Source of the DNA: Synechococcus sp. UW140
GTDB taxonomy: Bacteria > Pseudomonadota > Gammaproteobacteria > Burkholderiales > Burkholderiaceae_C
Assembly (NCBI GenBank): GCA_943368755.1
Contig: CALRLO020000010.1
Coordinates: 420-64,419, forward strand
DNA: 64,000 nucleotides
Reading direction: 5' to 3'
Below the pieces are notes generated by a model. It did no database searches. It saw nothing but the letters and a program-made list of their open reading frames with translations, and was not told the origin of the DNA. Below, piece by piece: positions 11,275 through 37,241 of this stretch (positions within the stretch are counted from its first letter, which is position 1; every line of letters begins with the position of its first letter). The translations under genes were made by a program, and so were the position numbers.

Positions 11275-11913
11275 ATGCCAGCCACGTCGCCCCGCCTCTG
11301 GGACATTTCGCCCCCGGTACACACCGCCAGCCCGGTGTTCCCCGGTGACACGCCCTACAGCCAGCAATGGGCCGCCTCCATAGGCCCCGGCTGTCCGGTC
11401 AACGTCAGCGCCATCACGCTCTCGCCGCACGTGGGTGCCCATGCCGATGCGCCACTGCACTACGACCCGCAGGGCCTGCCCATTGGCGAAGTGCCGCTGG
11501 ACGCTTTCATCGGCCCCTGCCGGGTGATTCACGCCATAGCTTGCCGGCCGCTGGTGGAATGGCACCACATCGCCCACGCCACACAAGGCTTGCCGCCGCG
11601 CGTGCTGGTACGCACCTACACCCACATGCCGCAAGACCGCTGGGACGGCGCGCTGGCCGGCTACGCCCCGCAAGTAGTGGAGCGTTTCGCCGCACTGGGC
11701 GTGAAGCTCATCGGCATAGACACCGCCAGCATCGACCCCGCCGAGAGCAAGACGCTGGACAGCCACCAGGTGATACGGCGGCACGGCATGCGGGTACTGG
11801 AGAATCTCGTGCTCGACGACGTGCCCGAAGGCGACTACGAACTCATTGCCCTGCCCCTCAAACTGACCCAGGCCGACGCCAGCCCCGTGCGCGCCGTCCT
11901 GCGCGACCTCTGA
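11275..11913 (+). CDS. kynB: Kynurenine formamidase (arylformamidase)
   Basis: [11 protein letters not shown] metal motif, [32 protein letters not shown]; TAGAAT -10 candidate at 11245-11250. Confidence 0.93.
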
Positions 11914-11934
11914 TTTTTTGCAACGGAAGCCCCC

Positions 11935-13140
11935 ATGACGACCTCTCTGTTCTCGCACGTGCCCGCCTACGGCGGCGACCCCATCCTCACCCTGATGGAA
12001 ACCTTCCAGAAGGATGCGCGCCCCAACAAGGTCAGCCTGTCCATTGGCATCTACTTCGATGAAGAAGGCCGCCTGCCGGTGCTCGAATCGGTGCGCCGCG
12101 CCGAAGCCTCCGGGCTGGAGAAGATCGGCCCGCGCCCCTACCTGCCCATGGAAGGCGCCGCCGCTTACCGCAACGCGGTGCAAATGCTGGTGTTCGGTGC
12201 CGAGCACGAAGCCGTGGCAAGTGGCCGCATCGCCACCCTGCAGAGCCTGGGCGGCTCGGGCGCGCTCAAGGTGGGCGCCGATTTTCTCAAGCGCTACTTC
12301 GACAGCTCGGAAGTCTGGGTCAGCGACCCGACCTGGGAGAACCACGTCGCCCTGTTCGAAGGTGCCGGCTTCAAGGTCCACACCTACCCCTATTACGACG
12401 CCAAGACCGGCGGCCTGCGTTTCGACGAGATGGTCGCCGCCTTCAAGGCCTTGCCGGCACGCAGCATCGTGCTGCTGCACGCCAGCTGCCACAACCCGAC
12501 GGGCGTGGACCTGACCCAGTCCCAGTGGCAGCAGCTCATTCCCGTCATCGCCGAGCGCGGACTGATCCCCTTCGTGGACATGGCCTACCAGGGCTTCGGC
12601 GACGGCCTCGCCGAAGACGCCTTCTCCATCCGCGCGCTCGCCAGCGCCGGCGTGCAGTTCTTCGTGGCCAACTCGTTCTCCAAGAACTTCTCCCTCTACG
12701 GTGAACGCTGCGGCGGCCTGCATGTGGTCTGTGCCGACGCGGCTGCCGCCGACACGGTGCTGGGCCAGCTCAAGGCCACAGTGCGCCGCAACTACTCCAG
12801 CCCGCCCACGCACGGCGAGGTGGTCATCACCAAAGTGCTGTCCGATCCAGAGCTGTTCGCGCTGTGGCAAAAAGAGCTGGCCGAGATGCGAGAGCGCATC
12901 AAGGCCATGCGCGAAGGCTTGCACCGGGTGCTGAACGAGCACTTCAAGGGCGCGCGCAACTTCGACTACTTCCTGACCCAGCGTGGCATGTTCAGCTACA
13001 CCGGCCTCAGCGCCGCGCAGGTGGACACCCTGCGCGACCAGCACGCGGTGTACCTGGTGCGTTCGGGCCGCATGTGCATGTCGGGCCTGAGCACCCAGAA
13101 TGTGGGCTACGTGGCCAACGCCATGGCCCAGGTGCTCTGA
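11935..13140 (+). CDS. Class I PLP aminotransferase of AspC/TyrB type; candidate kynurenine aminotransferase
   Basis: [42 protein letters not shown] (PLP Lys), SGRM; does not resemble kynureninase. Confidence 0.9.
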
Positions 13141-13163: not shown

Positions 13164-14033
13164 ATGTGCCCCCACGCCCACGGCAGCACGCCCGCCTCGG
13201 TGCCCGAGTCCATCGTGCACGAGGAAAAGGCACAGCTGGATTTCAGCCGCAGCATGAGCTACGGCGACTATCTCCAGCTCGACCAGATCCTCAACGCGCA
13301 GCAGCCCCGCTCGCCCGCACACGACGAACTGCTGTTCATCGTTCAGCACCAGACCAGCGAACTCTGGATGAAGCTGATGCTGCACGAGCTGCGCGGTGCC
13401 ATCCGCAACGTCGCCAACGACGAGCTGGGCGCCGCCTTCAAGATGCTGGCGCGCGTGAGCCGCATCATGGAGCAGCTGGTGCATGCCTGGGACGTGCTCT
13501 CCACCATGACACCGCCCGAGTACAGCGCCATGCGGCCCTACCTGGGCGCCTCCAGCGGCTTCCAGAGCTACCAGTACCGTTGCATCGAGTACTCGCTGGG
13601 CAACAAGAACCCGGCCATGCTCAAACCCCACGAGCACCGACCCGACCTGCTGGCGCTGGTGCGCGAGTCCTTCGACGCGCCCTCGCTGTACGACGAATCG
13701 CTGCGCCTGCTGGCACGCCGGGGCATCGCCGTTCCCGCCGAGTACCTGGAGCGCGACTGGAGCCAGCCCTATGTGGCCAGCGACGCGGTGGAACAGGCCT
13801 GGCTCACCGTCTACCGCAACCCCAAGGAATACTGGGACCTCTACCAGCTGGGCGAGGAACTGACCGACCTGGAAGACGCCTTCCGCCTCTGGCGCTTCCG
13901 CCACGTGACCACGGTGGAACGCGTGATCGGCTTCAAGCGCGGCACCGGTGGTACCGGTGGCGTGAGCTACCTGCGCAAGATGCTGGACGTGGTGCTGTTC
14001 CCCGAAATCTGGAAACTCCGGACGGACCTGTAA
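13164..14033 (+). CDS. kynA: Tryptophan 2,3-dioxygenase
   Basis: [50 protein letters not shown]. Confidence 0.95.
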
Positions 14034-14039
14034 CCCACC

Positions 14040-14119
14040 CCCGCGCCGCGCCTGCGGCGCGTCACCCCATCAAGGGGGCAACATCAGCAGGCCGGCAAAG
14101 CCGGCTCTGCGATGTTCCC
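14040..14119. repeat. Intergenic three-hairpin repeat (REP/MITE-like), copy 2
   Basis: cgcgccgc/gcggcgcg, cccc/gggg and aacatc-a-gcagg-ccggc/gccgg-c-tctgc-gatgtt; homologous to 2371-2451. Confidence 0.8.
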
Positions 14120-14151
14120 TGTCAAGCCGCTGCCACGTGGCGACTGTGGGT

Positions 14152-15141
14152 TCACTGCGGTTTGATGTTCGCCTTCTGGATCACCGCCGCCATCTTGGTG
14201 GTGTCCGCCTTGATGCGATTGCCCAGCCCCTCGGGCGAGGTGCCCGCCACCTGCCAGCCCTGCGTGAAGATGCGCTGACGGATTTCCGGATCGCGCACGA
14301 TGTCGGCCAGCAGGCCCGACACCTTGCTCACCACCGGCTTGGGCAGGCTGTTGGGCGCGGCCACCGCGTTCCAGATCTCCAGCTGGAAGCCCTTGATGCC
14401 GCCCTCGGCCACACTGGGCACGTTGGGCACCAGCGAGCTGCGGCCCAGCGAGGTGACGCCCACCGCCTTGAGCTTGCCCGCCGACACCTGCGCCATGGCC
14501 AGGCCCGGCGGCAGCAGCGACAGCTGCACATCCCCCGCCACCATGGCCGTGATCACCTGCGGGTTGCCCTGGTAAGGCACGTGCACCGCCTCGATGCCAG
14601 CGGTGGATTTCAGCAGCTCCATGCCGATGTGTGCCACCGTCCCAATGCCGGGCGTGCCGTAGTTCCACTTGCCACCGGCCGCCCGCGCCGCCGCCAGCAT
14701 GCCCGGCACATCGCCCGGCACCGAGGCCGCCGCCGCCAGGACCAGGGGCGCAGTGGCCAGCAGCGATACCGGCTGCAGGTCCTTCAGCGGGTCGTAGGTG
14801 GTGGCCGGGTTCAGGATCTTTGCGATGGTCAGGTTGCCATTGATCATCAGCCCCAGCGTGTGGTCATCGGTGGCGCGTGACACCAGGTCGGCGGCCACGT
14901 TGCCACCCGCACCGGGGCGGTTCTCCACCACCACAGGCTGGCCCAGCGCCTTGGCCAGAGGCTCGGCAATGGTGCGGGCCATCAGGTCCGGCGACGAGCC
15001 GCCGGGAAAGCCGACGATGAGGCGCACCGGCTTGGTGGGCCAGGCGCCGCCCTGCGCCCAGGCGCCGGACAACGCGAGTGCGGCTGCAAGGCCGATGGTG
15101 GACTGGATCACGAGGCGGCGGGAGGGTTTGGACTGGGTCAT
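14152..15141 (-). CDS. Bug/TctC family solute-binding protein
   Basis: IVGFPGGSSPD..AR, VENRPGAGG, YGTPG.G, HVPYQG. Confidence 0.9.
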   Translation of the reverse strand: MTQSKPSRRLVIQSTIGLAAALALSGAWAQGGAWPTKPVRLIVGFPGGSSPDLMARTIAEPLAKALGQPVVVENRPGAGGNVAADLVSRATDDHTLGLMINGNLTIAKILNPATTYDPLKDLQPVSLLATAPLVLAAAASVPGDVPGMLAAARAAGGKWNYGTPGIGTVAHIGMELLKSTAGIEAVHVPYQGNPQVITAMVAGDVQLSLLPPGLAMAQVSAGKLKAVGVTSLGRSSLVPNVPSVAEGGIKGFQLEIWNAVAAPNSLPKPVVSKVSGLLADIVRDPEIRQRIFTQGWQVAGTSPEGLGNRIKADTTKMAAVIQKANIKPQ

Positions 15142-15295
15142 GGCGCGTCTGTGGAAACGTTGGCGGGAAAGTTGGAACCGGCAACCTTAACCGATGCCCA
15201 TCAGATTTCCCCATGGTTTAAAAAGTATCAAAAACAGCATAATCGTTAGCCATCGAAGGCAAGCAACGCCCACAAATTTCAGCGAAAGGCCAGAC

Positions 15296-16003
15296 ATGGG
15301 TATCCAGGATCGCGACTACTGGCGGGAGTGGCACCGGGAACGGGAAGACAGCAACGGATTTCGCCGCCGGCCACCCGAGCCCCCAGGCGCGCAATGGCAC
15401 TGGAGCCTCAAAGTCTTGGTCTGGCTGCTGATTGCCGGGACCCTGTTCGCGGTATTCAAGCGCGTTGAACCGCGTCGCAACACCCCACGCCCGGCCGCCG
15501 CTTCCACGCAGGACTCGCCGACACCCACACAACCGCCATGGCCTGCAGCGCCATCGCCGTCGCAGACATTTCAGCCACCCCACTCTGGATACGCCCTACC
15601 CGCACCAGCCCCTACACCAGCACCCATTCCATCACGGGTCACCATCTATCTATGCAAGGACTACAGCGGCGGGATGTTCTGGGCATCCAACCACTGCAGC
15701 CAGCACCGTGCGTTGATCGACCGTATGGAATCGGTACCCAGCAACCTGCCCTGGGACCAGCAGGTGCTTCTGGCCCAACAGGCGCGCAACCGGGCTGCCG
15801 AATTGACCAGACCACCGCCCGTGATGGAAAGCCGCACAGTTATCGTGAATAACATGGGGAATACCGCAGCCTGCGAAGCTCTGGAGCAGCACATCGTTCA
15901 TCTGGATGCGATGGCGCGCCAGCCGCAGAGCGCGCAGATGCAGGACTGGATCAAGGCGCAGAAAGCGGATGCGCGGAGCCAGCAGTTCAGGTTGAGGTGT
16001 TGA
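15296..16003 (+). CDS. Hypothetical single-pass membrane protein with Pro-rich linker and Cys-containing C-terminal domain
   Basis: MGIQDRDYW start with GAAAGG upstream, one hydrophobic helix, P/S/T-rich linker, four Cys including a terminal Cys. Confidence 0.7.
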   Translation: MGIQDRDYWREWHREREDSNGFRRRPPEPPGAQWHWSLKVLVWLLIAGTLFAVFKRVEPRRNTPRPAAASTQDSPTPTQPPWPAAPSPSQTFQPPHSGYALPAPAPTPAPIPSRVTIYLCKDYSGGMFWASNHCSQHRALIDRMESVPSNLPWDQQVLLAQQARNRAAELTRPPPVMESRTVIVNNMGNTAACEALEQHIVHLDAMARQPQSAQMQDWIKAQKADARSQQFRLRC

Positions 16004-16170
16004 GTATTGAGTGTGGGAAACGGCCGGCAGCGGTGCAGCGTGTGCCGACATCTGCGTTTGTAAACAGTTGCTCGTGACGGGATCGAGGTCGACTCCCGTT
16101 GTGAGGTTTCCGCCACCGGGCCACTGCGGCCGTCGGCATAGACCAGCTGTGCACCCGCCCGCTGTCTCCT

Positions 16171-17055
16171 TCACCTTGCGGCGCTGGCAAGCAGCGAAAT
16201 CAGGCGCTTTGCAACAGGTGGCACATAGCTGTTTTCTCGGTAGGTGACGACAAGACGCCGGTGCATGGTGGCTTCTTTGACAGGCACCTCTCTGAGTTGT
16301 GAACTTGTGGTCGCTTGGTCCAGATGATGTCTGGAAATGAAGCTCAGCAAGCCCGTCTCGGCAATGAGCGTAGGAAGCATCAGCAACATGGTGCTTTCCA
16401 CCTGCACCCGAGGGCGAGGCAGTTGTTTGCGATCAAAAGTATGGTCCAACCAGTCGCGGGTCGGTGCACCAGGGGGTTGCAGGACCCAGCGGTACCGGGT
16501 CAGGTCACGCAGGGTCGGCTTGATGTTGTGAATTTCGTGTCCGACGCTGGCTGCCACGACGATGGTGTCGGCGGTCAAGACCTGTGAAACGAATCCCGAC
16601 TCTTCGGCACCCTCCGTTCCCACCATCAGGTCGATTTCACCTGCGCGCAATAGTGGGCGAAGCGTGTCCACCAGCCCGACCACTGTTTTCATGGTGACCT
16701 CTGGTGCCTCGGCCATCAACTCGCGGGCAGCATTCGGCAGCAGGAACTGCGCTGCGGTGGGAACAATGCCCAGGCGGATATGGCCCGACAGTCCAAGGCC
16801 GATATCGCCAATTTCCCGCCTGGCGTCGTCCATGTCAAATCGCATCCGCTGTGCCCATTTCTGCAGCACCCGACCCGCCGCCGTGAGACGGATACCCCGG
16901 CCATCCTTCTCAAAAAGTGGCGCACCACACTCTTCTTCCAGCCGGCGTATGCAACTGGTCAGCGCAGGCTGGGTGCGGTGCAGGCGCCGGGTGGCCTGAC
17001 CGATGTGTTCCAGCTCGGCGATAGTCTCGAAGTAGCGGAGGTCGCGCAGGTCCAT
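16171..17055 (-). CDS. LysR family transcriptional regulator
   Basis: MDLRDLRYF...HRTQPALTSCIRRLEEECGAPLF HTH; divergent from the catabolic cluster. Confidence 0.92.
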   Translation of the reverse strand: MDLRDLRYFETIAELEHIGQATRRLHRTQPALTSCIRRLEEECGAPLFEKDGRGIRLTAAGRVLQKWAQRMRFDMDDARREIGDIGLGLSGHIRLGIVPTAAQFLLPNAARELMAEAPEVTMKTVVGLVDTLRPLLRAGEIDLMVGTEGAEESGFVSQVLTADTIVVAASVGHEIHNIKPTLRDLTRYRWVLQPPGAPTRDWLDHTFDRKQLPRPRVQVESTMLLMLPTLIAETGLLSFISRHHLDQATTSSQLREVPVKEATMHRRLVVTYRENSYVPPVAKRLISLLASAAR

Positions 17056-17068
17056 ACCAAAAGTCAGA

Positions 17069-17082
17069 TTGATGAATATCAA
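17069..17082. promoter_or_regulatory. Candidate LysR-binding dyad
   Basis: TTGAT-gaat-ATCAA just upstream of lysR; contains T-N11-A. Confidence 0.45.
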
Positions 17083-17183
17083 GAAATAATCGATTGGACT
17101 GTAAGTGTTCGGCCCGGAATACTCAAGCCCACAAACGGGATGCCTGCGCGGTTGCAGGGAACCCAAAGCACTGGAGACAACCC

Positions 17184-18158
17184 ATGAACCTGCGCCTGAC
17201 CCGCCGCGCCCTGATCGCTCTGACCGTCACAACCTTTGCAGCCGGTGCCAGCGCCCAGGCATTCCCCAACAAGCCCATCCGCGTGGTCGTGCCTTTCCCT
17301 GCCGGCGGCGGTACCGACGTGATTGCCCGCGAAGTCACGCAGAAAGTGACCGCCACCACGGGATGGACTTTCGTGATCGAGAACAAGGCGGGCGCGGGGG
17401 GCAACATCGGTGTGGACGCCGCAGTCAAATCGCCGGCAGACGGCTACACCATCGTGCTGGGGCAGACCAGCAACCTGGCCATCAACGCCACGCTGTACGA
17501 CAAGATGCCGTACGACTCGCAAAAGGATCTGGCCCCCATCGTTCTGGTGGCCAATGCCCCCCTGGTGGTGGTCACCAGCAGTGCCTCGACTTTCAAGACG
17601 CTGGGCGACGTGCTGAAAGCGGCCAAGGCCAAGCCCGGCGCGGTGAACTACGCGACCTCAGGCAACGGCACCGTGGCACACCTGACCATGGAGCTGTTCC
17701 AGAACGCCGCGGCCACCAAGCTGCAGCACGTGCCCTACAAAGGCGCCGCTCAGGCCATGACCGATGTGGTCAGCGGCAACGTGGAGCTCTACACCTCCTC
17801 CGTGCCAACACTCCTGGGCCAGATCAAGCAGGGCAAGCTGCGCGCGCTGGCCGTCACGTCGGCCAACCGCGTGGACGACCTGCCCGAGGTGCCCACGATC
17901 AACGAATCGGGCTTCAAGGGATTTGACGCTGTGACATGGTTCGGCTTCCTGGCGCCCGCCGGTACGCCCAAGGATGTGGTGGCCCGGCTCAACGCTGAGT
18001 TCAACAAGGCCCTTTCACAGGCCGATCTGCGCAAGAAGCTGGGTGACCAGGGCGCCGAGCCCGTGGGCGGAACCCCCGAGCAGTTCGCGTCACTCATCAA
18101 GGACGAGATCGGGCGCTGGGGCAAGGTCGTCAAGGAATCGGGCGCGCGCAACGAGTGA
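17184..18158 (+). CDS. Bug/TctC family solute-binding protein
   Basis: VVPFPAGGGTD, ENKAGAGG, HVPYKG; GGAG SD. Confidence 0.92.
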   Translation: MNLRLTRRALIALTVTTFAAGASAQAFPNKPIRVVVPFPAGGGTDVIAREVTQKVTATTGWTFVIENKAGAGGNIGVDAAVKSPADGYTIVLGQTSNLAINATLYDKMPYDSQKDLAPIVLVANAPLVVVTSSASTFKTLGDVLKAAKAKPGAVNYATSGNGTVAHLTMELFQNAAATKLQHVPYKGAAQAMTDVVSGNVELYTSSVPTLLGQIKQGKLRALAVTSANRVDDLPEVPTINESGFKGFDAVTWFGFLAPAGTPKDVVARLNAEFNKALSQADLRKKLGDQGAEPVGGTPEQFASLIKDEIGRWGKVVKESGARNE

Positions 18159-18232
18159 AGCCAGGCGCCGCAGGCGCCACCCCATTCAACCCCCGCCAGC
18201 CCGAGCGCTGGCCATTCATCAGGAGATCTTTC

Positions 18233-18931
18233 ATGGGTCAAGCCGCTGCATTGCCCGATGTCATCCGGGACTTCGAACGGGTCGATGCCACCACCGTGGC
18301 AAAGGCCGCCGTGTTTCCATCGTCCATCCTGGCCGACGTGGCCGGTCGCCGTGGGGCGCTGAGCGGCCGTATCGCCCCGCTGGCGCCGACCATGCGGTTT
18401 GCCGGGCCGGCGCTGACGGTCGAAGTCCGTCCGGGCGACAACCTGATGATCCATGCCGCCATGGCGCTCGCGAAGCCGGGCGACGTGATCCTGGTTGACG
18501 GCAAAGGCGACCTGAGCAGCGCCCTGATGGGCGAGATCATGTCGCAGCAATGTGTGGCGCTGGGCGTGGCCGCCGTGGTGATCGATGGCGCGGTGCGCGA
18601 CAGCGAAGCCATCCGCGAGCTGGGCTTCCCGATGTACGCCGCCGGCCTCAACCCGAACGGCCCCACCAAATCGGTGGCGGGCCGGGTGAACCACCCCATT
18701 TCCATCGGCGGCGTGACGGTCAATCCGGGGGACCTGGTGGTGGGTGACGCCGATGGTGTGACCGTGATCGAACGCGCCAAGGCGGCCGCGATGTTGCCGC
18801 TGGCACACGAGAAGGTGGCCGCAGAGACCAAGCGCATCGCGCAGATCAAGAGCCGCGAGGCCCTGGCACCGTCCTGGCTGGGTGCAGCCCTGCGCGCCGC
18901 CGGCGTGCTCAAGGAAGGGGAGACGCTGTGA
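18233..18931 (+). CDS. RraA family / HMG-CHA aldolase-like protein
   Basis: GPALTV, GDNL, PGDVILVD, IDGAVRD, V.PGDLVVGDADGV; AGGAG SD. Confidence 0.85.
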   Translation: MGQAAALPDVIRDFERVDATTVAKAAVFPSSILADVAGRRGALSGRIAPLAPTMRFAGPALTVEVRPGDNLMIHAAMALAKPGDVILVDGKGDLSSALMGEIMSQQCVALGVAAVVIDGAVRDSEAIRELGFPMYAAGLNPNGPTKSVAGRVNHPISIGGVTVNPGDLVVGDADGVTVIERAKAAAMLPLAHEKVAAETKRIAQIKSREALAPSWLGAALRAAGVLKEGETL

Positions 18932-19848
18932 GCAAGCGCCCTGTATTGCTGGTAACGGCCGCAGATCTGGCTCCGCAGGCCCTGGCCTTGCTGACCGAGT
19001 TCGACGTCGTGTACGCGGGCAAGACGCCCACCGAGGAAGACGTCATTGCCTTGTGCCGGCAGCACGACCCTGTGGCCATCATCGTGAGGTACAGCAAGGT
19101 CGGTGCAGCCGCCATGGACGCGGCGCCCAGCCTGCGCGTCATCTCCAAGCACGGCAGCGGCACCGATACCATCGACAAACAGGCTGCGGCCGCACGTGGT
19201 ATCCAGGTGGTGGCGGCCGTGGGCGCCAACGCAGCAGCGGTGGCGGAGCAGGCGCTGGCGCTGTTGCTGGCCTGTGCCAAGTCGGTGGTCACCCTGGACC
19301 GGCGCATGCACGCCGGGCATTGGGACAAGTCCACGCACAAGAGCATCGAGCTCGAGGGCCGCACGGTGGGTGTGGTGGGTCTGGGTGCGATTGGCTTGCG
19401 CTTTGCCAAGGTTGCCGATGCGATGGGCATGCGGGTACTGGGTTTCGACCCTTACGCCCATCAGTTGCCGGAGTTCATTCGGTCTGTTGACCTGGACACC
19501 ATCTGGCGGGAGTCAGACGCCATTTCATTGCATTGCCCACTGACACCCGACAACGCTCAACTGATCAACGCCACCACCCTGGCCGCATGCAAGCGCGGTG
19601 TGCTCATCGTCAACACCGCACGCGGCGGGCTGATTGATGAGGCGGCTTTGCTCTCGGCCGTGAAGTCCGGACACGTGGGCAGTGCCGGACTCGACAGCTT
19701 CGTCGTGGAGCCCATGACCGCGCCGCACCCCTTCCACGGCGAAGATGGCATCGTGCTCAGCCCGCATATTGGCGGCGTGACGGCTGACGCCTACGTCAAG
19801 ATGGGCGTTGCAGCTGCAAAAAATGCACTTGCGGTGCTCAACGGGTGA
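18928..19848 (+). CDS. D-isomer-specific 2-hydroxyacid dehydrogenase
   Basis: GVVGLGAIG, SLHCPLT, NTARGGLIDE, SPHIGG; GTGA overlap with the aldolase gene. Confidence 0.9.
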   Translation: MSKRPVLLVTAADLAPQALALLTEFDVVYAGKTPTEEDVIALCRQHDPVAIIVRYSKVGAAAMDAAPSLRVISKHGSGTDTIDKQAAAARGIQVVAAVGANAAAVAEQALALLLACAKSVVTLDRRMHAGHWDKSTHKSIELEGRTVGVVGLGAIGLRFAKVADAMGMRVLGFDPYAHQLPEFIRSVDLDTIWRESDAISLHCPLTPDNAQLINATTLAACKRGVLIVNTARGGLIDEAALLSAVKSGHVGSAGLDSFVVEPMTAPHPFHGEDGIVLSPHIGGVTADAYVKMGVAAAKNALAVLNG

Positions 19849-19854
19849 ACCACC

Positions 19855-20919
19855 ATGACCCGGCGTTGGAAACAATCACCGCCAGGCGCTCACTGGGGCG
19901 AGTTTGGTGACGACGACCAGCGGGGTCGCATGAACCTCGTGACCCCCGCCAAGGTGCTGGAGGGCATCGCCGAAGTTCGTACAGGACGCACCTTCTGCCT
20001 GTCGCTTCCGCTGGACGTTCCCGGTGGCACCGCGCTCAACCCGCGGCGCCAGCCGCCCCAGCGTTTTGCGGTGCTGCGGGATGGCAGGAGCGCCGGGCAG
20101 CAAGGGTTCTGCTGGTCTTACGCCAGCGAAGACCCGGAACTCACCGACGTTGTCAACGACGACGTGGTGCTGATGAGCTTGCAATACTCGACGCAGTGGG
20201 ACAGCCTGGCTCACATCGGCGCCCATTTCGATGCAGACGGCGACGGGGTTGCTGAGGCGGTGTTCTACAACGGCTACCGGGCGGGCCACGATATCCGACC
20301 AGGCATCGAGAACGCGCAAGCAGCAAACGCCTATGCCCGTTTCCCCGGCCCTCAGGCGGATGCCCTTGGCATAGAGCACCTGGCAGAACATGGTGTTCAA
20401 GGCCGCGGCGTGATGGTGGACCTCGAACATCACGTTGGGCGAGTACGCACTGCAGTCGGCTACGACCAGCTGATGCGGATTCTGGACGCCGACAAGGTCG
20501 AGATAGAGCCAGGTGACATGGTGTGCCTGCACACCGGTTTTGCCGATACCTTGCTGGCCATGAACCGGTCACCCGACCTCAACCGCCTGCATCAGACGGG
20601 TAGTGGGCTGGATGGATGGGACCAGAAGCTGCTGAACTGGATTGTGGACACCCGCCTTGCCTGCCTGCTGGCAGACAACCCGGCGGTGGAATTGGTCGTC
20701 CCCAAGCTGACGACCCCATCCCCCATGCGCAGGCCACGGCTGCCACTGCACGAGCACTGCCTCTTCAAAAACGGCATACCCCTAGGCGAACTCTGGTACC
20801 TGACGGCACTGGCCGTCTGGTTGCGTGTCAACCAGCGAACGCGCTTTTTGCTCACCGCTCCGCCGCTGCGTTTGCCTGGCGCGGTGGGCTCACCGGCGAC
20901 ACCCATCGCCACCGTTTGA
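19855..20919 (+). CDS. Cyclase family (KynB-like fold) metal-dependent hydrolase
   Basis: WGEFGDDDQRGRMNL start, QYSTQWDSLAH, GRGVMVD, GIPLGELWYL, PPLRLPGAVGSPATP. Confidence 0.8.
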   Translation: MTRRWKQSPPGAHWGEFGDDDQRGRMNLVTPAKVLEGIAEVRTGRTFCLSLPLDVPGGTALNPRRQPPQRFAVLRDGRSAGQQGFCWSYASEDPELTDVVNDDVVLMSLQYSTQWDSLAHIGAHFDADGDGVAEAVFYNGYRAGHDIRPGIENAQAANAYARFPGPQADALGIEHLAEHGVQGRGVMVDLEHHVGRVRTAVGYDQLMRILDADKVEIEPGDMVCLHTGFADTLLAMNRSPDLNRLHQTGSGLDGWDQKLLNWIVDTRLACLLADNPAVELVVPKLTTPSPMRRPRLPLHEHCLFKNGIPLGELWYLTALAVWLRVNQRTRFLLTAPPLRLPGAVGSPATPIATV

Positions 20920-20969
20920 ACGCCGCACTTCAATCACCCTGCAAATCGAAAAGAGAAGGAGACAGAAAT

Positions 20970-21935
20970 ATGAATAGGCGATGGACCCGTGTGGTCGTGG
21001 CGAGCCTTGCGGCAACGTTCACACTTTGCGCTCAGGCAGCCTGGCCAGAGAAGCCCGTAAAGCTGGTGGTTCCCTATGCTGCAGGAGGCGCTGCTGATGC
21101 CTTGGCCAGAGTGGTGGCAACCGAACTCGGCGCGAGGCTCCAACAGCAAGTTGTGGTGGAAAACAAGGGCGGAGCCGGCGGAACCATTGGGGCGCAAGCG
21201 GTAGCACAGGCACCGGCAGACGGCTATACCTTTCTCTATGACGCGACGTCTTTTGCGGTCAATCCCAGCCTGTTTCCCAAGCTGACCTTCAGCTACACAA
21301 AGGACTTCGTTCCCATTTCCATGGTGGCCCGGATCCCGACGCTGCTGGTTGTTCCCGCAGCGTCTCCCGCCAACTCGGTTGCAGACCTGGTGCGTCTGGC
21401 GCGCGCCAATCCAGGCAAGCTGTCGTACGCGTCGGCTGGCAATGGTGGTGCTGCCCATCTGAGTGGCGAGCTGTTCAAGCAAGGGCACCGCATCTTTATT
21501 CTGCATGTCCCATACAAGGGCGGCGCGCCAGCACTGACCGACTTGACGGGAGGGCAGGTTGACATGATGTTCAGCGCCGTGACGGCTTCAGGCCCCCTGG
21601 TGAAATCAGGGCGACTCAAGGCCATCGCGACCGCATTTGACAGGCGAATCGAATCCATGCCGGACGTGCCCACCGTCGCGGAGGCTGGCCTGCCCGGATT
21701 CAGCGCGTACGAATGGAACGCTATCTTTGCGCCCAAAGGCACGCCAGCGGATGTCGTCAACCGCATGGAAACGGAAATGCGCAGCGTGCTGTCTGCCCCT
21801 TCAGTACGCGAACGCTTGTCCGCCATGGGTGCTCTGCCCGCAACGGGTGGCGCGAAGGAGCTGGGGGCATTTGTCGAGGCTGAAAGTGCCAAATGGGCCT
21901 CTGTCATCAAAACATCGGGCATCAAACTGGACTGA
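20970..21935 (+). CDS. Bug/TctC family solute-binding protein
   Basis: VVPYAAGGAAD, ENKGGAGG, HVPYKGG; AGGAG SD. Confidence 0.92.
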   Translation: MNRRWTRVVVASLAATFTLCAQAAWPEKPVKLVVPYAAGGAADALARVVATELGARLQQQVVVENKGGAGGTIGAQAVAQAPADGYTFLYDATSFAVNPSLFPKLTFSYTKDFVPISMVARIPTLLVVPAASPANSVADLVRLARANPGKLSYASAGNGGAAHLSGELFKQGHRIFILHVPYKGGAPALTDLTGGQVDMMFSAVTASGPLVKSGRLKAIATAFDRRIESMPDVPTVAEAGLPGFSAYEWNAIFAPKGTPADVVNRMETEMRSVLSAPSVRERLSAMGALPATGGAKELGAFVEAESAKWASVIKTSGIKLD

Positions 21936-21957
21936 ACCGATTCTCAAGGAGACACGC

Positions 21958-22914
21958 ATGAAACGTTCGATTCTCGCCACGCTGGCCGTGCTGGCGGCCA
22001 CATCCGGTTTGGCCCAGGGCTGGCCCAGCAAACCCGTCAAGATCATCGTTCCATATCCGCCTGGAGGTGCGGTAGATGTGGTCACGCGACGCATGGCGAC
22101 CAAGCTGCAGGAGCAGACCGGGCAAACCTTTTTTGTCGAAAACAAGGCTGGCGCCACAGGAACGATTGGCATCAGTCAGACGGTGCAATCCACGCCTGAC
22201 GGCTACACGCTGGTGGCCAACGACACCACGTACGCACTGTTGCCTCACATCTTCAAGAAGCTGCCTTTCGACCACGAAAAAGACCTGCTCCCGTTGGGGG
22301 CCTACATGTTCGCGCCCATGGCCGTGGTGGTGCGCAACGAATCGCCCTTCAAGACTCTGGATGACCTGCTGCGGGCAGGCAAAGCAGAACCCAACAAAAT
22401 CACCTACGGCACGGGCGGCGCAGGGACCATGCCCCACTTTGCGAGTGAAGCCCTGGGGATTGCCACAGGTGTGAACTTCATGCACGTCCCTTTCAAGGGT
22501 GCAGGTGAAGCCACCCTGGCCTTGCTGGGTGGAACGATTGACTACCAGATCGCCTCTACGCCCGGCATCATCGGCCAGGTCAAAGGCGGCAAGGCGCGCC
22601 TTCTGGCTGTCAGCGGTGACAAGCGGCCCAGCGCATTGTCCAACGTGCCAACCTTCACCGAGGCCGGTATCAAAGGCTACGGCGTGGTGAACTTCACAGG
22701 GCTGTGGGCGCCGAAAGGAACGCCAGCCGAGGTCGGGGAGCGTCTGCAGAAGGAAATTGCCACGGCCATGGCCAGTGCCGACATGAAAGCCTATGCCGAG
22801 AGCATTGGCGCCGAGGCCGGCGCCTGGGATGCCGCCACCTTCGCCCGGAACCTGGCCGAGCGCACCGCCTACTGGGGCAAGGTGGCCGCCAACACCAGCT
22901 TCGACCGCCAATAA
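21958..22914 (+). CDS. Bug/TctC family solute-binding protein
   Basis: IVPYPPGGAVD, ENKAGATG, HVPFKG; AGGAG SD. Confidence 0.92.
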   Translation: MKRSILATLAVLAATSGLAQGWPSKPVKIIVPYPPGGAVDVVTRRMATKLQEQTGQTFFVENKAGATGTIGISQTVQSTPDGYTLVANDTTYALLPHIFKKLPFDHEKDLLPLGAYMFAPMAVVVRNESPFKTLDDLLRAGKAEPNKITYGTGGAGTMPHFASEALGIATGVNFMHVPFKGAGEATLALLGGTIDYQIASTPGIIGQVKGGKARLLAVSGDKRPSALSNVPTFTEAGIKGYGVVNFTGLWAPKGTPAEVGERLQKEIATAMASADMKAYAESIGAEAGAWDAATFARNLAERTAYWGKVAANTSFDRQ

Positions 22915-22922
22915 GGCCGCGC

Positions 22923-23852
22923 ATGTGGCTGCTCAATCCTCCCGAGGTGCGTGAGGCGGAGGTCTTCACGCGCTTGCCCGAGCACTATCGACGCACAGGC
23001 GTGCGCTCCGTATGGGGTGACGCCAACCGTCCCGGCCAATCCACCGACAGTTTCCTGGAGGGCCCGGTGTTCGACGGTGCGGGCAATCTCTTCGTGACGG
23101 ACATCCCCTTCGGCCGCATCTTTCGCATCGATGGCGAGGGCAGTTGGACTCTGGTCACCGAATACGACGGCGAGCCCAACGGCATGAAGTTCCTGAACGA
23201 CCGGGAGTTGCTGATTGCCGACTACAAGAATGGTTTGATGACCTGCGATGTGGCCAGCGGTTCGGTCCGCCCCTACCTGGAGCGCCGCAACACCCAACGC
23301 TTCATGGGCATCAACGACCTGGTCTTCGACTCGGTGGGCAATCTCTACTTCAGCGACCAGGGTCAGACCGGCCTGCACGACCCGACGGGACGGCTGTACC
23401 GCCTGCGCCCGAACGGCCAACTGGATGTGCTGCTGTCTCGAGTGCCCAGTCCCAATGGCGTTGCGCTGTCGCCCGACGAGCGGGTGCTCTACCTCGGCGT
23501 GACCCGTGGCAACGAGGTGTGGCGCGTGCCTTTGCTTGACGACGGCAGCGTATCCAAGGTCAGCGCATTTTTCAGGTCATACGGGCCCAGTGGCCCTGAC
23601 GGCCTGGCAGTGGATGGCCAAGGCAAGGTGATCGTTGCCAACCCGGGTTTGGGCTACGCCTGGGTGCTCAATCACCGAGCTGAGCCCGTGCTGGTCCTGC
23701 GCAGCACCGTGGGCATGTCGCTGACCAATGTCACCTTCGGCGGGCCTGACCGCAAGACGCTTTACTGCACCGAGTCCGTGAGCGGTTCGATTCTTCGTGC
23801 AACCCTTGATGCAGCAGGACTCCCGCTGGCACGACCCAACCATGCACATTGA
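22923..23852 (+). CDS. SMP-30/gluconolactonase/LRE family beta-propeller
   Basis: FLEGPVFD, PNG, NDLVFD..GNLYFSD, PNGVALSPD, GPDGLAVD, TNVTFGG. Confidence 0.88.
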   Translation: MWLLNPPEVREAEVFTRLPEHYRRTGVRSVWGDANRPGQSTDSFLEGPVFDGAGNLFVTDIPFGRIFRIDGEGSWTLVTEYDGEPNGMKFLNDRELLIADYKNGLMTCDVASGSVRPYLERRNTQRFMGINDLVFDSVGNLYFSDQGQTGLHDPTGRLYRLRPNGQLDVLLSRVPSPNGVALSPDERVLYLGVTRGNEVWRVPLLDDGSVSKVSAFFRSYGPSGPDGLAVDGQGKVIVANPGLGYAWVLNHRAEPVLVLRSTVGMSLTNVTFGGPDRKTLYCTESVSGSILRATLDAAGLPLARPNHAH

Positions 23853-23888
23853 AGTGAGCGATTGACGTCGGTCGGAAAACCGTCCCGT

Positions 23889-25061
23889 CTACGGCCCGGC
23901 ATACAACGCCGGCACATCCATGACCTGCTCTGCGCCCACCGCCATCGCCACGTCACGCGCCCAGCGCATCGGTCCCTGCAGGTGGAAGATGCGCCCGTTG
24001 CGCCGGGAGCGCGCCTGCACCCATGCGTTGCGCGACCAGCGCTCCTGGGCCCAGCCCTGCAGCAACGCGGGCACACGCTCGCGCCAGCCCTGTCCCAGCA
24101 CACGCCCCAGCGCCCACGCATCCTCCAGCGCCATGGCCGCACCCTGCGCCAGGTAAGGGCGCATCGGGTGGGCAGCGTCGCCCAGCAGGGCCACACGGCC
24201 CTGGGCCAGTTCGTTCGCTCCGCGCACCGGTGGCCGGTCGTGCAGTGGCCACAGGGTCCAGCCGGGCACGGCGTCCAGCACGGCCTGCAGGTCACGGTGC
24301 ACCTCGCCCAGCGCGGCCCGCAATGCGGCGGCGCTGGCATGGTGGCTCCAGTCCTGCGCGTCGCCGTTCACGCGGCCGTGCACCACAGCCACGAGGTTGA
24401 GCCAGTCGCCGCCGCGCACGGGATAGTGCACCACGTGGTGGCGCGGGCCCAGCCAGGCGGTCACGCCGGTCTGACGCAGCGGCGCAGGCAGTTCGGCCTG
24501 GCGCAACAGGCCGCGGTAGGCCAGGTGGCCGGTGGGATGGGGCAGGCCATCGTTCAGCAGTTGCTGGCGCAGCCGGCTCCACACGCCGTCACAGCCCAGC
24601 AGCAGGTGGCCGGCCATGGGCTGGCCCTGCTGCGTTGAAAGCGCCACACCGTCGCCAGCATCGTGCCAGTGGCTGACCACGGTGCCCAGTTGCAGTTCGG
24701 CAAGGGGCTGCGCGGCCTGCAGCAGCATCCCATGCAGGTCGGCGCGGTGGACGGTGGCGTAAGGCTGCCCGTAGCGCTCGCGCGCACGCTCGCCCAGGCG
24801 CAGCGTGCCCAGCACCCGGCCGCTGCGGCTGTCGCGGGCGCGCAGCGCATCGGGAAAGGCGGCGCAGGCTTGCAGCGCGGGCAGCAGGCCCCAGCTGTCG
24901 AGCACGCGCACGGCGTTGGGGCCAAGCTGCAGGCCGGCCCCCACCTCGCCCCAGGCGCTGGCCTGCTCCAGCAGGCGCACGCGGGCTCCGGCGCGTGCCG
25001 TGGCAATAGCCGAGGCCAGACCGGCGATGCCACCGCCGGCAATCAGTACATCCGCATCCAT
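23889..25061 (-). CDS. Class A flavin monooxygenase (salicylate/3-hydroxybenzoate hydroxylase-like)
   Basis: GGGIAG, EVGAGLQLGPN, GCDG, LLGDAAHPMRPYLAQGAAMALEDA. Confidence 0.88.
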   Translation of the reverse strand: MDADVLIAGGGIAGLASAIATARAGARVRLLEQASAWGEVGAGLQLGPNAVRVLDSWGLLPALQACAAFPDALRARDSRSGRVLGTLRLGERARERYGQPYATVHRADLHGMLLQAAQPLAELQLGTVVSHWHDAGDGVALSTQQGQPMAGHLLLGCDGVWSRLRQQLLNDGLPHPTGHLAYRGLLRQAELPAPLRQTGVTAWLGPRHHVVHYPVRGGDWLNLVAVVHGRVNGDAQDWSHHASAAALRAALGEVHRDLQAVLDAVPGWTLWPLHDRPPVRGANELAQGRVALLGDAAHPMRPYLAQGAAMALEDAWALGRVLGQGWRERVPALLQGWAQERWSRNAWVQARSRRNGRIFHLQGPMRWARDVAMAVGAEQVMDVPALYAGP

Positions 25062-25122
25062 GGGCGTCGATTGTGCCCGGCGGGGGTGCCACAATGGTCC
25101 GTCATCGCAACCGGAGCCCGCC

Positions 25123-25503
25123 ATGGATCAGGAAGCCTTCAACCAGTCGCTGTTTCTCACGGCCCGTCTGGTCGACCGCGGTGACTACGTGGATGCCGCG
25201 ATCGCGCTGCGCCCGTGGCTGGAGACCGACCTGGACGCCAAGGGAAAAGCCATCGTCTGCATCAACCTGGCGGTGTGCTGCGAACACCAGAAGGACTACG
25301 AGAGGGCACTGGCCTGGTACGAGCACGGCACCCACCATGCCCTCGTGTTCGCCGGGGAGCACAAGGCCGCCCTGCTCTACCGGCTGGGCCGCAAGGCGGA
25401 TGCGTTGGCCACCTACCGCCGCCTGCTGCCCGAAATCCTCACGCCCGAGGAGCGAACGCGCATACAGACCAACGTGGATACGCTGGTCAAAGAATGCGGT
25501 TGA
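25123..25503 (+). CDS. Small TPR-like protein
   Basis: Helical repeats (DYERALAWYE, KAALLYRLGRKADALATYRRLL); GGAG SD; CACAAT at 25090-25095. Confidence 0.65.
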   Translation: MDQEAFNQSLFLTARLVDRGDYVDAAIALRPWLETDLDAKGKAIVCINLAVCCEHQKDYERALAWYEHGTHHALVFAGEHKAALLYRLGRKADALATYRRLLPEILTPEERTRIQTNVDTLVKECG

Positions 25504-36864: not shown

Positions 36865-37241
36865 TGGTGGAGCTGGGGGGATTTGAACCCCCGTCCGCAA
36901 GCCTTCTTCGCGCAGTTCTACATGTGTAGCCATCTGTTTTGAGTCTCGCTTCCTGTAGCGCGCAGTGGCACGCTCTACAAGACGCCAGCAACCTATTGTC
37001 TCGACCTGCCCCAAGTTGCCCGAGGCGAGCCCAGCCGAATGAAGTTACCCCACAGCCTGGACAGCTTGCGCCACCCTTGCCCAGCCTATCGGCTTGCTGT
37101 TGTGAGGCTCACGTGCAATTAAGCAGCGAGTGCGAAACGTTCGTCGTTTGCAGTTAGTTTTTTTCTGCGGTTTTACGAGGTGACAGAACCTCGACATGCC
37201 CTGCCGCGTGTCCGAACCCACGTCGAAACCAATGCAGCCCC
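36865..37241 (-). ncRNA. ssrA: tmRNA
   Basis: 5' GGGGCUG and 3' CAGCUCCACCA acceptor stem with G3-U, T-arm GGUUCAAAUCC, internal tag GCA AAC GAC GAA CGU UUC GCA CUC GCU GCU UAA (ANDERFALAA) at 37119-37151. Confidence 0.97.

Follow-up and report, generated by a model that had tools for sequence, protein, structure and literature searches.

Several described systems resemble parts of the locus reported here, an eight-gene catabolic block in a 64,000-nucleotide stretch of Synechococcus sp. UW140 DNA (assembly GCA_943368755.1, contig CALRLO020000010.1, positions 420 to 64,419 of the forward strand; hereafter, the window). The block encodes a LysR-type regulator, three Bug (TctC) solute-binding proteins (SBPs), an RraA-like enzyme (rraA), a 2-hydroxyacid dehydrogenase (hadh), a cyclase-family hydrolase, and an SMP-30/gluconolactonase-family lactonase. 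The HMG/CHA aldolase (LigK/GalC/ProA; PDB 3NOJ) of the protocatechuate 4,5-cleavage and gallate pathways has an RraA-like fold and the positions R123, D124, and E199 in common with the RraA-like protein of the block. Both are expected to be divalent-metal pyruvate aldolases/oxaloacetate decarboxylases performing the last step of a carboxylate catabolic operon. However, the two are only about 32-35% identical, the block protein falls below the equivalog cutoffs and has no LigI, LigJ, or LigAB partners, and its gene always stands in a putative operon with a D-2-hydroxyacid dehydrogenase.

The block cyclase is like the metagenomic carboxylesterase MGS0169 (PDB 5IBZ) and the trans-dienelactone hydrolase of Pseudomonas reinekei MT1 in its QxxxQxDxxxH motif, its Arg/His/Glu equivalents, and its size (~320-350 aa). 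Canonical PF04199 members are amidases; the esterase activity of MGS0169 is stimulated by Mn2+ and exceeds its amidase activity on isatin at least 1000-fold, its Gln-Gln-Asp-His motif is common to trans-dienelactone hydrolase, and mutating the motif, Arg87, His286, or Glu299 abolishes activity (PMC5341072). MGS0169 is an orphan without known physiological substrate or gene context, whereas the block cyclase belongs to a very strongly conserved orthologue group (75-93% identity, Burkholderiales) within a defined putative operon. As for uptake, the block resembles the TctCBA and Bordetella Bug systems in having three TctC proteins with signal peptides, encoded by orphan SBP genes beside catabolic genes, a placement also found in Bordetella, Cupriavidus, and Comamonas (e.g., the terephthalate binding protein TphC). 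Unlike TctCBA, it has neither TctA nor TctB, and a single short pathway is served by several SBPs, each of which tends to go with a hydrolase of its own. Finally, Weimberg/Dahms-type routes and the lactonase RPA3624 (7RIS) offer a beta-propeller lactonase whose ring opening precedes oxidation or cleavage to pyruvate and a small fragment; the block, in contrast, has no sugar dehydrogenase or dehydratase, its candidate aldolase is of another superfamily, and its uptake would be carboxylate-specific.

With moderate confidence, we propose that the block takes up carboxylated lactones, opens the ring, and oxidises the 2-hydroxyl, followed by aldol cleavage or decarboxylation to central metabolites. 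The full-text literature searched, with most subscription journals outside its coverage, held no published account of this gene combination. Open reading frame (ORF) listing and hidden Markov model (HMM) scans recovered the eight genes and their families exactly where an earlier note on this DNA had placed them (Table 1), with the co-orientation, the short gaps or overlaps, and the divergent lysR that it had described. The lysR gene lies on the minus strand, and the other seven genes are tightly packed on the plus strand. The gaps between successive plus-strand genes are 74, -4, 6, 50, 22, and 8 bp, the hadh start overlapping the rraA stop by 4 bp. Internal terminator-like sites in the block did not exceed the shuffled expectation, the scan total being below chance, and RNA folds of its intergenic spacers were no better than those of shuffled sequence. 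Signal peptides, read from the translations, occur at the N-terminus of all three Bug proteins and on none of the four enzymes; therefore, the hydrolases would act on imported molecules in the cytoplasm. No oxygenase is encoded inside the block, as the earlier note had also stated, and the FAD monooxygenase abutting it is a resident gene.

The cyclase reads QYSTQWDSLAH, which corresponds to QxxxQxDxxxH and does not match the amidase motif HxGTHxDxPxH. Because the motif of MGS0169 replaces that of the amidases, the protein is more likely a second lactone/ester hydrolase than an amide/lactam hydrolase. Its only solved relative was 5IBZ (E=1.2e-34), with QYSTQWDSLAH aligned to QGSTQWDALSH and with the LPLH (LPxH) and GELW (GExW) segments in common. 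The motif and the equivalents of the MGS0169 Arg/His/Glu residues were at least 98% conserved in 81 orthologues, in which 45% of all positions were at least 98% identical.

The RraA-like protein matched 3NOJ with E=1.8e-36; R123, D124, and E199 were matched, and D102 was replaced by E. In 3NOJ, R123, D124, D102, and E199' reportedly include the catalytic Arg and the acidic metal ligands and bind pyruvate and metal (Wang et al. 2010). In the RraA-like protein itself, R122, D123, and E198 were invariant in 77 orthologues. A separate, true LigK is encoded on contig C25 of the same genome, with 386 bits against TIGR02798 and 382 bits against NF006731. It lies in a canonical protocatechuate 4,5-cleavage cluster (C25:12618-18851) with the order LigJ-like, LigK, a Bug gene, LigI-like, LigA, LigB, and LigC-like. 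Neither the window block nor any of about 80 related loci contained genes for 2-pyrone-4,6-dicarboxylate hydrolase, 4-oxalomesaconate (OMA) hydratase, or a ring-cleavage dioxygenase. The best NCBIfam model for the dehydrogenase was phosphoglycerate dehydrogenase (PGDH; 245 bits, below cutoff), and the glyoxylate-reductase models also scored below cutoff. Its GxGxxG...D, TARG, and SPHIGG motifs were conserved among orthologues, and the acidic residue following GxGxxG presumably marks an NAD-type enzyme. For the lactonase, the SGL domain scored 134 bits against a cutoff of 26.3; the EGP, PNG, ND, and PDG motifs, which we take to be metal ligands, were invariant in 62 orthologues, and the nearest solved structures were the broad-specificity lactonases 7RIS and 8DJF (both E=2e-21).

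Scanning one genome per prokaryote species with the cyclase resulted in 338 stretches encoding a relative, of which we studied the best 80. The cyclases of these best 80 were 75-93% identical and came from Hydrogenophaga, Curvibacter, Polaromonas, Variovorax, Ramlibacter, Rubrivivax, Roseateles, Piscinibacter, Cupriavidus, Ralstonia, Achromobacter, and Bordetella. The gene content of the loci was mapped by tblastn with the block proteins and counted on the 59 cyclase-seeded loci with full flanks. The rraA and hadh genes adjoined the cyclase in 56 of the 59 loci, and the lactonase was also present in 46, while an Amidohydrolase_2 gene, whose nearest curated model is 4-sulfomuconolactone hydrolase at a score far below cutoff, was additionally present in 27. 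A Bug gene followed the cyclase in 52 of the 59 loci and lay directly upstream of the lactonase in 33 of 46. Clusters harbored two to five Bug genes, and bug1 was the first gene in nearly all of them, three-gene minimal ones included. The regulator was a LysR in 24 loci and an IclR in 17. The core of bug1, rraA, and hadh was found in at least 80 Burkholderiales species. No other gene family recurred near the roughly 80 clusters, so the pathway appears self-contained.

The variants of the cluster point to modular assembly. Three congeners have a minimal form, an IclR gene next to bug1-rraA-hadh, with no hydrolase. The congener G016 has two half-clusters, one with the cyclase and bug2 and the other with bug3 and the lactonase, each with its own bug1-rraA-hadh. 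The longest forms, in G012 and L020, end in bug-bug-Amidohydrolase_2. In a sample of the phylum, a close RraA orthologue occurred in only 6 of 301 genomes, two of them without Bug genes. Both Bug-less genomes, one of which lies outside Burkholderiales, have an IclR gene and rraA-hadh-lactonase, followed by two ACS-family major facilitator superfamily (MFS) organic-anion transporters. As judged from these arrangements, the invariant core appears to consist of one uptake component, the dehydrogenase, and the RraA-like enzyme. The cyclase-like, SMP-30, and Amidohydrolase_2 proteins are probably exchangeable, non-homologous front-end modules that tend to come with a Bug gene of their own, and outside Bug-rich taxa MFS anion transporters seem to replace the Bug proteins. 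More distant cyclase homologues (50-63% identity) occurred in unrelated contexts with thiolase/DUF35, GMC oxidoreductase, or Liv ABC genes.

Alongside the observed gene identities, insertion, modular architecture, conservation, and purifying selection, we infer in which sequence the reactions take place, that the substrates are lactones, and how they are taken up. The three periplasmic Bug proteins would capture carboxylates, both the lactones and the matching free acid, and would pass them to a TctAB encoded elsewhere. In the cytoplasm, the Gln-Gln-Asp-His cyclase-like metallo-esterase and the SMP-30 lactonase would open the ester or lactone rings of related compounds or isomers, and a free 2-hydroxy (di/tri)carboxylic acid would be released. 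The NAD-type D-2-hydroxyacid dehydrogenase would then convert the 2-hydroxyl, giving a 2-oxo acid. The translationally coupled RraA-like enzyme would perform either a retro-aldol reaction on a 4-hydroxy-2-oxo acid or the beta-decarboxylation of an oxaloacetate-like acid. It is predicted to release pyruvate or 2-oxoglutarate together with a small central metabolite, which would make further dedicated enzymes unnecessary. In the presence of the substrate or of an intermediate, LysR would act at a conserved promoter to switch on the operon. We arrive at this scheme because the minimal clusters are hydrolase-free, because the three optional enzymes come from lactone- or ester-hydrolysing families, and because the enzymes are cytoplasmic, yet each tends to travel with its own binding protein.

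Candidate substrates may be lactone-forming substituted 2-hydroxyglutarates (the lactones of iso-/allo-isocitrate, 2,4-dihydroxyglutarate, and hydroxycitrate) or aldarolactones. The substituted 2-hydroxyglutarates would fit because in them the 2-hydroxyl and the distal carboxylate close to a gamma-lactone, and ring opening unmasks the target group of the dehydrogenase. The existence of several stereoisomers could be the reason for several hydrolases. A bolder version is possible, though we hold it only tentatively and on balance doubt it: an undescribed, widespread Burkholderiales pathway in which up to three non-homologous lactonases, each with a dedicated binding protein, funnel stereo- or regio-isomeric lactones of a single hydroxy-polycarboxylate family (iso-/allo-isocitrate, 2,4-dihydroxyglutarate, or hydroxycitrate) into a core of dehydrogenase and PRK06201-type RraA.

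The insertion was examined by a DNA search of nine related genomes and follow-up alignments. In four congeners (G012, G004, G015, and G016) the site is empty: the Bug gene bug0 and the FAD monooxygenase gene stand on the same strand, about 30-40 bp apart. In the present genome, 8.7 kb (15142..23888) separates the two. G012 has the cluster at another locus, where homology corresponds exactly to window 16171-23833 with 80% nucleotide identity. The metagenome contig L110 carries the same eight genes, of identical lengths, with 91.7% nucleotide identity over window 16173-23878 and has unrelated flanks, with a MacB/FtsX transporter at one end and a LysR fragment plus DUF1232 at the other. Another metagenome contig, L109, has the window's own arrangement across the whole region at 99.25% identity and thus represents the same insertion. 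Because the site is empty in four congeners and the eight-gene unit stands in a different context elsewhere, the block is counted as acquired, which bears out the island postulated in the earlier note. The segment 16173..23878 appears to be a discrete horizontally transferable catabolic unit that, in this Hydrogenophaga lineage, entered the short gap within a resident FAD-monooxygenase/Bug operon. Comparison of the window copy with that of L110 gave a dN/dS of 0.04-0.16 for each gene, and all eight genes are accordingly under purifying selection. The closest sequenced version is L020, a Hydrogenophaga metagenome-assembled genome, in which six of the seven common proteins are 89-95% identical and bug1 is 75% identical; bug2 has no counterpart there, the segment 20922-21946 being missing.

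The base composition of the block points in the same direction as the earlier note, which had reported fewer G/C-ending codons than in core genes. The genome comprises 3.84 Mb in 91 contigs with 66.9% GC. Against a background gene set obtained with a simple frame-plot caller on the same genome, the mean G/C fraction at third codon positions (GC3) was 0.85 (sd 0.06), and the genes flanking the block ranged from 0.85 to 0.91. The concatenated block had a GC3 of 0.76, within the lowest 2.3% of 2452 eight-gene runs, and the 8.7-kb inserted stretch had a GC of 0.628, within the lowest 5.7% of windows of the same size. By gene, GC3 was 0.67 (0.665) for bug2, 0.68 for lysR, 0.74 for the cyclase, 0.76 for bug3, 0.77 for the lactonase, and 0.79 for hadh, with host-like values for bug1 (0.85) and rraA (0.84). 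The codon deviation is therefore real, yet moderate and uneven among the genes. The L020 cluster lies in a genome region of about 62% GC and has a GC3 of 0.64-0.81 (0.75-0.81 for the seven genes common with the window), whereas the cluster of G012 (~70% GC) has a GC3 near 0.9; given this difference, the low GC3 of the block fits a fairly recent arrival from a lower-GC relative.

Table 1. Positions of the block genes, the junctions, and the flanking resident genes in the window, with the basis of each assignment.
Feature	Position	Strand	Basis
Resident TctC/Bug gene bug0, left flank of the insertion	14152..15141	-	Pfam TctC; adjacency in G012, G004, G015, G016
Left junction segment with orphan ORF, outside the transferable block	15142..16170	+	Homology to L110, G012, L020 begins only at 16171-16173
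LysR-type regulator	16171..17055	-	HTH_1 + LysR_substrate; no NCBIfam equivalog at cutoff; dN/dS 0.08 vs L110 copy
Divergent control region	17056..17183	+	Alignment of 27 distinct lysR-bug1 intergenic regions
Bug1, periplasmic tripartite tricarboxylate transporter (TTT) SBP, SBP of the conserved core	17184..18158	+	TctC 254 bits
RraA-like candidate class II pyruvate aldolase/beta-keto-acid decarboxylase, PRK06201-like subfamily	18233..18931	+	PF03737 162 bits
D-isomer-specific 2-hydroxyacid dehydrogenase (hadh), PGDH/glyoxylate-reductase-like	18928..19848	+	2-Hacid_dh_C 184 bits
354-aa cyclase-family hydrolase, Gln-Gln-Asp-His subtype	19855..20919	+	PF04199
Bug2, TTT SBP	20970..21935	+	TctC 265 bits
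Bug3, TTT SBP	21958..22914	+	TctC 223 bits
SMP-30/gluconolactonase-family (SGL) beta-propeller lactonase, cytoplasmic	22923..23852	+	SGL 134 bits
Right junction	23853..23888	.	Homology to L110 stops at ~23878, 10 bp short of the resident monooxygenase's stop codon
Resident FAD-dependent aromatic hydroxylase, right flank, outside the block	23889..25124	-	FAD_binding_3; NF006021 333 vs cutoff 459

The flanking FAD hydroxylase resembles 3-hydroxybenzoate 6-monooxygenase, below the NF006021 cutoff. Its membership of the block was considered and rejected, as it is resident at the empty sites of the four congeners and has a host-like GC3 of 0.85. In the four congeners, the FAD monooxygenase gene and, 30-40 bp on, the Bug gene make up a tight two-gene unit, which the insertion has split here. 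Being now 8.7 kb from its former upstream partner, bug0 may have lost its promoter.

In the regulatory region, alignment of 27 loci resulted in one conserved block in the lysR-bug1 spacer, ..A.AAA.TATCGATTGGAC.., which overlaps a -35-like TTGGAC (17094-17099). An 18-bp gap, a -10-like AATACT (17118-17123), and a ribosome binding site GGAGACA (17173-17179) were also conserved, and the rest of the spacer was variable. A dyad, TTGATGAATATCAA, at 17069-17082 is specific to the window. A generic sigma-70 scan did not call the block promoter; the bug1 promoter is predicted by phylogenetic footprinting and is consistent with a LysR-activated promoter. In other lineages, an IclR regulator takes the place of LysR. 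Regarding uptake, PDB searches with the three Bug proteins gave general family matches only and no clue to the ligand, and the genome has about 68 TctC/Bug paralogues versus five TctA genes.

Some observations weigh against the lactone route proposed above. The RraA-like protein falls just under the cutoff of NF004850 (220 vs 231 bits), a subfamily that is itself labelled "hypothetical protein", and it is below both LigK equivalog cutoffs (131.8 vs 304.5 bits for TIGR02798 and 152.9 vs 179 bits for NF006731). The esterase activity of MGS0169 was demonstrated on artificial p-nitrophenyl esters, not on lactones (PMC5341072). The reactions could also run in the reverse order: the aldolase would act first, and its glyoxylate- or hydroxypyruvate-type product would be reduced by the dehydrogenase. 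The block has no TctA or TctB gene, the five TctA genes being on other contigs, and uptake would depend on a putative pairing with one of those five loci. Additionally, the host-like codon usage of bug1 and rraA means that the block may be a mosaic, and no integrase, transposase, tRNA, or terminal direct, inverted, or flanking repeat that would explain its movement was found at the block ends.

The earlier note had read the locus as a LysR-controlled, acquired route of ring opening, aldol cleavage, and oxo-acid redox for a cyclic carboxylate. A LysR-controlled operon for a ring-bearing carboxylate with an HMG/CHA-aldolase-like last step is retained here as probable; the note's assignment of the cyclase as an amide/lactam hydrolase is not retained, given the esterase-type motif. 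With that assignment, the block would break down an N-heterocyclic ring derived from tryptophan or kynurenate jointly with the neighbouring kyn-like operon, which we regard as very unlikely. Such a role could draw on the KynB-like formamidase and aromatic aminotransferase 2-5 kb to the left, on the amidase activity of canonical PF04199 members (PMC5341072), and on the flavin hydroxylase abutting the block. However, the juxtaposition with the kyn-like operon was made by the insertion, kynB and the aminotransferase were near none of the about 80 other loci, and the island of the congeners is elsewhere or absent; the link to tryptophan or N-heterocycles is not supported. Moreover, two His of the amidase motif are missing from the cyclase, which matches the esterases of the family, where isatin is hydrolysed at least 1000-fold more weakly than esters, the hydroxylase is resident with host-like codons, and the block has no deaminase, amidase, or nitrogen-handling genes. 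Decay of the block into a remnant without a working pathway in this genome is just as improbable. The block does fall short of the full cluster: it ends right after the lactonase and lacks the bug-bug-Amidohydrolase_2 tail of its fullest relatives (G012 and L020) as well as TctAB, and no orthologous Amidohydrolase_2 exists elsewhere in the genome. Nevertheless, all eight ORFs are intact, the identical eight-gene form persists in a second context (L110) with the low dN/dS given above for every gene, 19 of the 59 full loci of other genomes likewise lack Amidohydrolase_2, and orphan Bug genes are usual here, as the ratio of Bug to TctA genes indicates.

Two further readings retain a lactone and differ in its source. 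Aromatic ring-fission lactones (2-pyrone-4,6-dicarboxylate, dienelactones, or muconolactones of the carboxy or sulfo type) might feed a variant lower pathway in which lactone hydrolysis precedes a LigK-like cleavage to pyruvate and oxaloacetate. Such a pathway would agree with HMG/CHA aldolase as the nearest solved structure to the RraA-like protein and with an Amidohydrolase_2 of the fuller clusters nearest to 4-sulfomuconolactone hydrolase and LigI-type lactonases. It would also agree with the QxxxQxDxxxH motif of trans-dienelactone hydrolase, a motif taken from PMC5341072 and not from an alignment of the sequences. We nonetheless consider this pathway quite unlikely, since none of the about 80 clusters has an OMA hydratase, tautomerase, maleylacetate reductase, or dioxygenase, and the genome already has the canonical LigJ-LigK-LigI-LigAB-LigC cluster with a true LigK. 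The hydrolase-free minimal clusters also imply that the core substrate is a free acid requiring a 2-hydroxyacid dehydrogenase, a step foreign to those aromatic pathways. A sugar-acid route seems a little less improbable, though still unlikely; in it, an aldono- or aldaro-lactone would be opened, oxidised, and cleaved in a Dahms-like manner, or the aldolase would act first and the dehydrogenase would reduce a glyoxylate-/hydroxypyruvate-type product. SMP-30 enzymes are classical sugar lactonases, the ACS-family MFS transporters found in place of the Bug proteins in other taxa come closest to D-galactonate-type carriers (below cutoff), and the dehydrogenase is also like glyoxylate/hydroxypyruvate reductases. 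On the other hand, none of the clusters contains or adjoins a gene for a sugar 1-dehydrogenase, a sugar-acid dehydratase, or a kinase. No RraA-type aldolase is known to act on 2-keto-3-deoxy sugar acids, and the ligands of characterised Bug proteins are di- and tricarboxylates or aromatic acids, not aldonates. The uptake and opening of carboxylated lactones, followed by oxidation and cleavage of the hydroxy acid, is the reading that we retain.

Some features of the surroundings were recorded as well. The segment 15142-16170 between bug0 and the block contains an orphan ORF with possible starts at 15194, 15296, and 15674, a stop at 16003, a Pro-rich middle, and a GC3 of 0.72. It (15194..16003) had no Pfam or NCBIfam match, tblastn of the genome and the fetched loci returned only itself, and it does not travel with the block. 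On L110, just past the right end of the block (15748-16167), a 139-aa LysR fragment retains only the substrate-binding domain and may be rearrangement debris. Beyond bug0, window 14030-14125 harbors a GC-rich hairpin-forming element of about 85-90 bp (predicted -50.6 kcal/mol), by appearance a repetitive extragenic palindromic (REP)-like intergenic repeat, with at least 14 copies of 50 nt or more in the genome and dozens at 80-89% identity in four congeners. Two congeners (L101 and L102) have about 2 kb extra between the gene ending near window 14029 and bug0 (14029-14201), which suggests a second indel at the bug0 locus, with only the REP-like element here in place of the ~2 kb. Farther to the left (window 11275-13140), the next gene after that of a KynB-like formamidase, whose HxGAHxDxPxH is intact, encodes a TyrB-like aromatic aminotransferase and not a kynureninase; an Lrp/AsnC regulator lies upstream. 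A tmRNA gene with the tag peptide ANDERFALAA lies on the minus strand at window 36865-37241.

Burkholderiales carry dozens of orphan Bug/TctC proteins, nearly all without a known ligand, and the cluster ties three to five of them to a short enzyme set; because this set is self-contained and strongly conserved in at least 80 species, the search for ligands becomes tractable. Until the substrate is found, the practical value will be modest. The cluster also provides a defined genetic context for MGS0169-type cyclase-like esterases and PRK06201-type RraA-like proteins, for which only in-vitro or structural-genomics data have existed so far. If the lactone-funnel pathway is true, the Gln-Gln-Asp-His cyclase-like esterases, this RraA subfamily, and a set of orphan Bug proteins would gain their first physiological roles. 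With its fixed core, its exchangeable hydrolase/SBP cassettes, and the swap from TTT to MFS transporters, the cluster appears to be a clear example of how a catabolic operon is assembled and moves.

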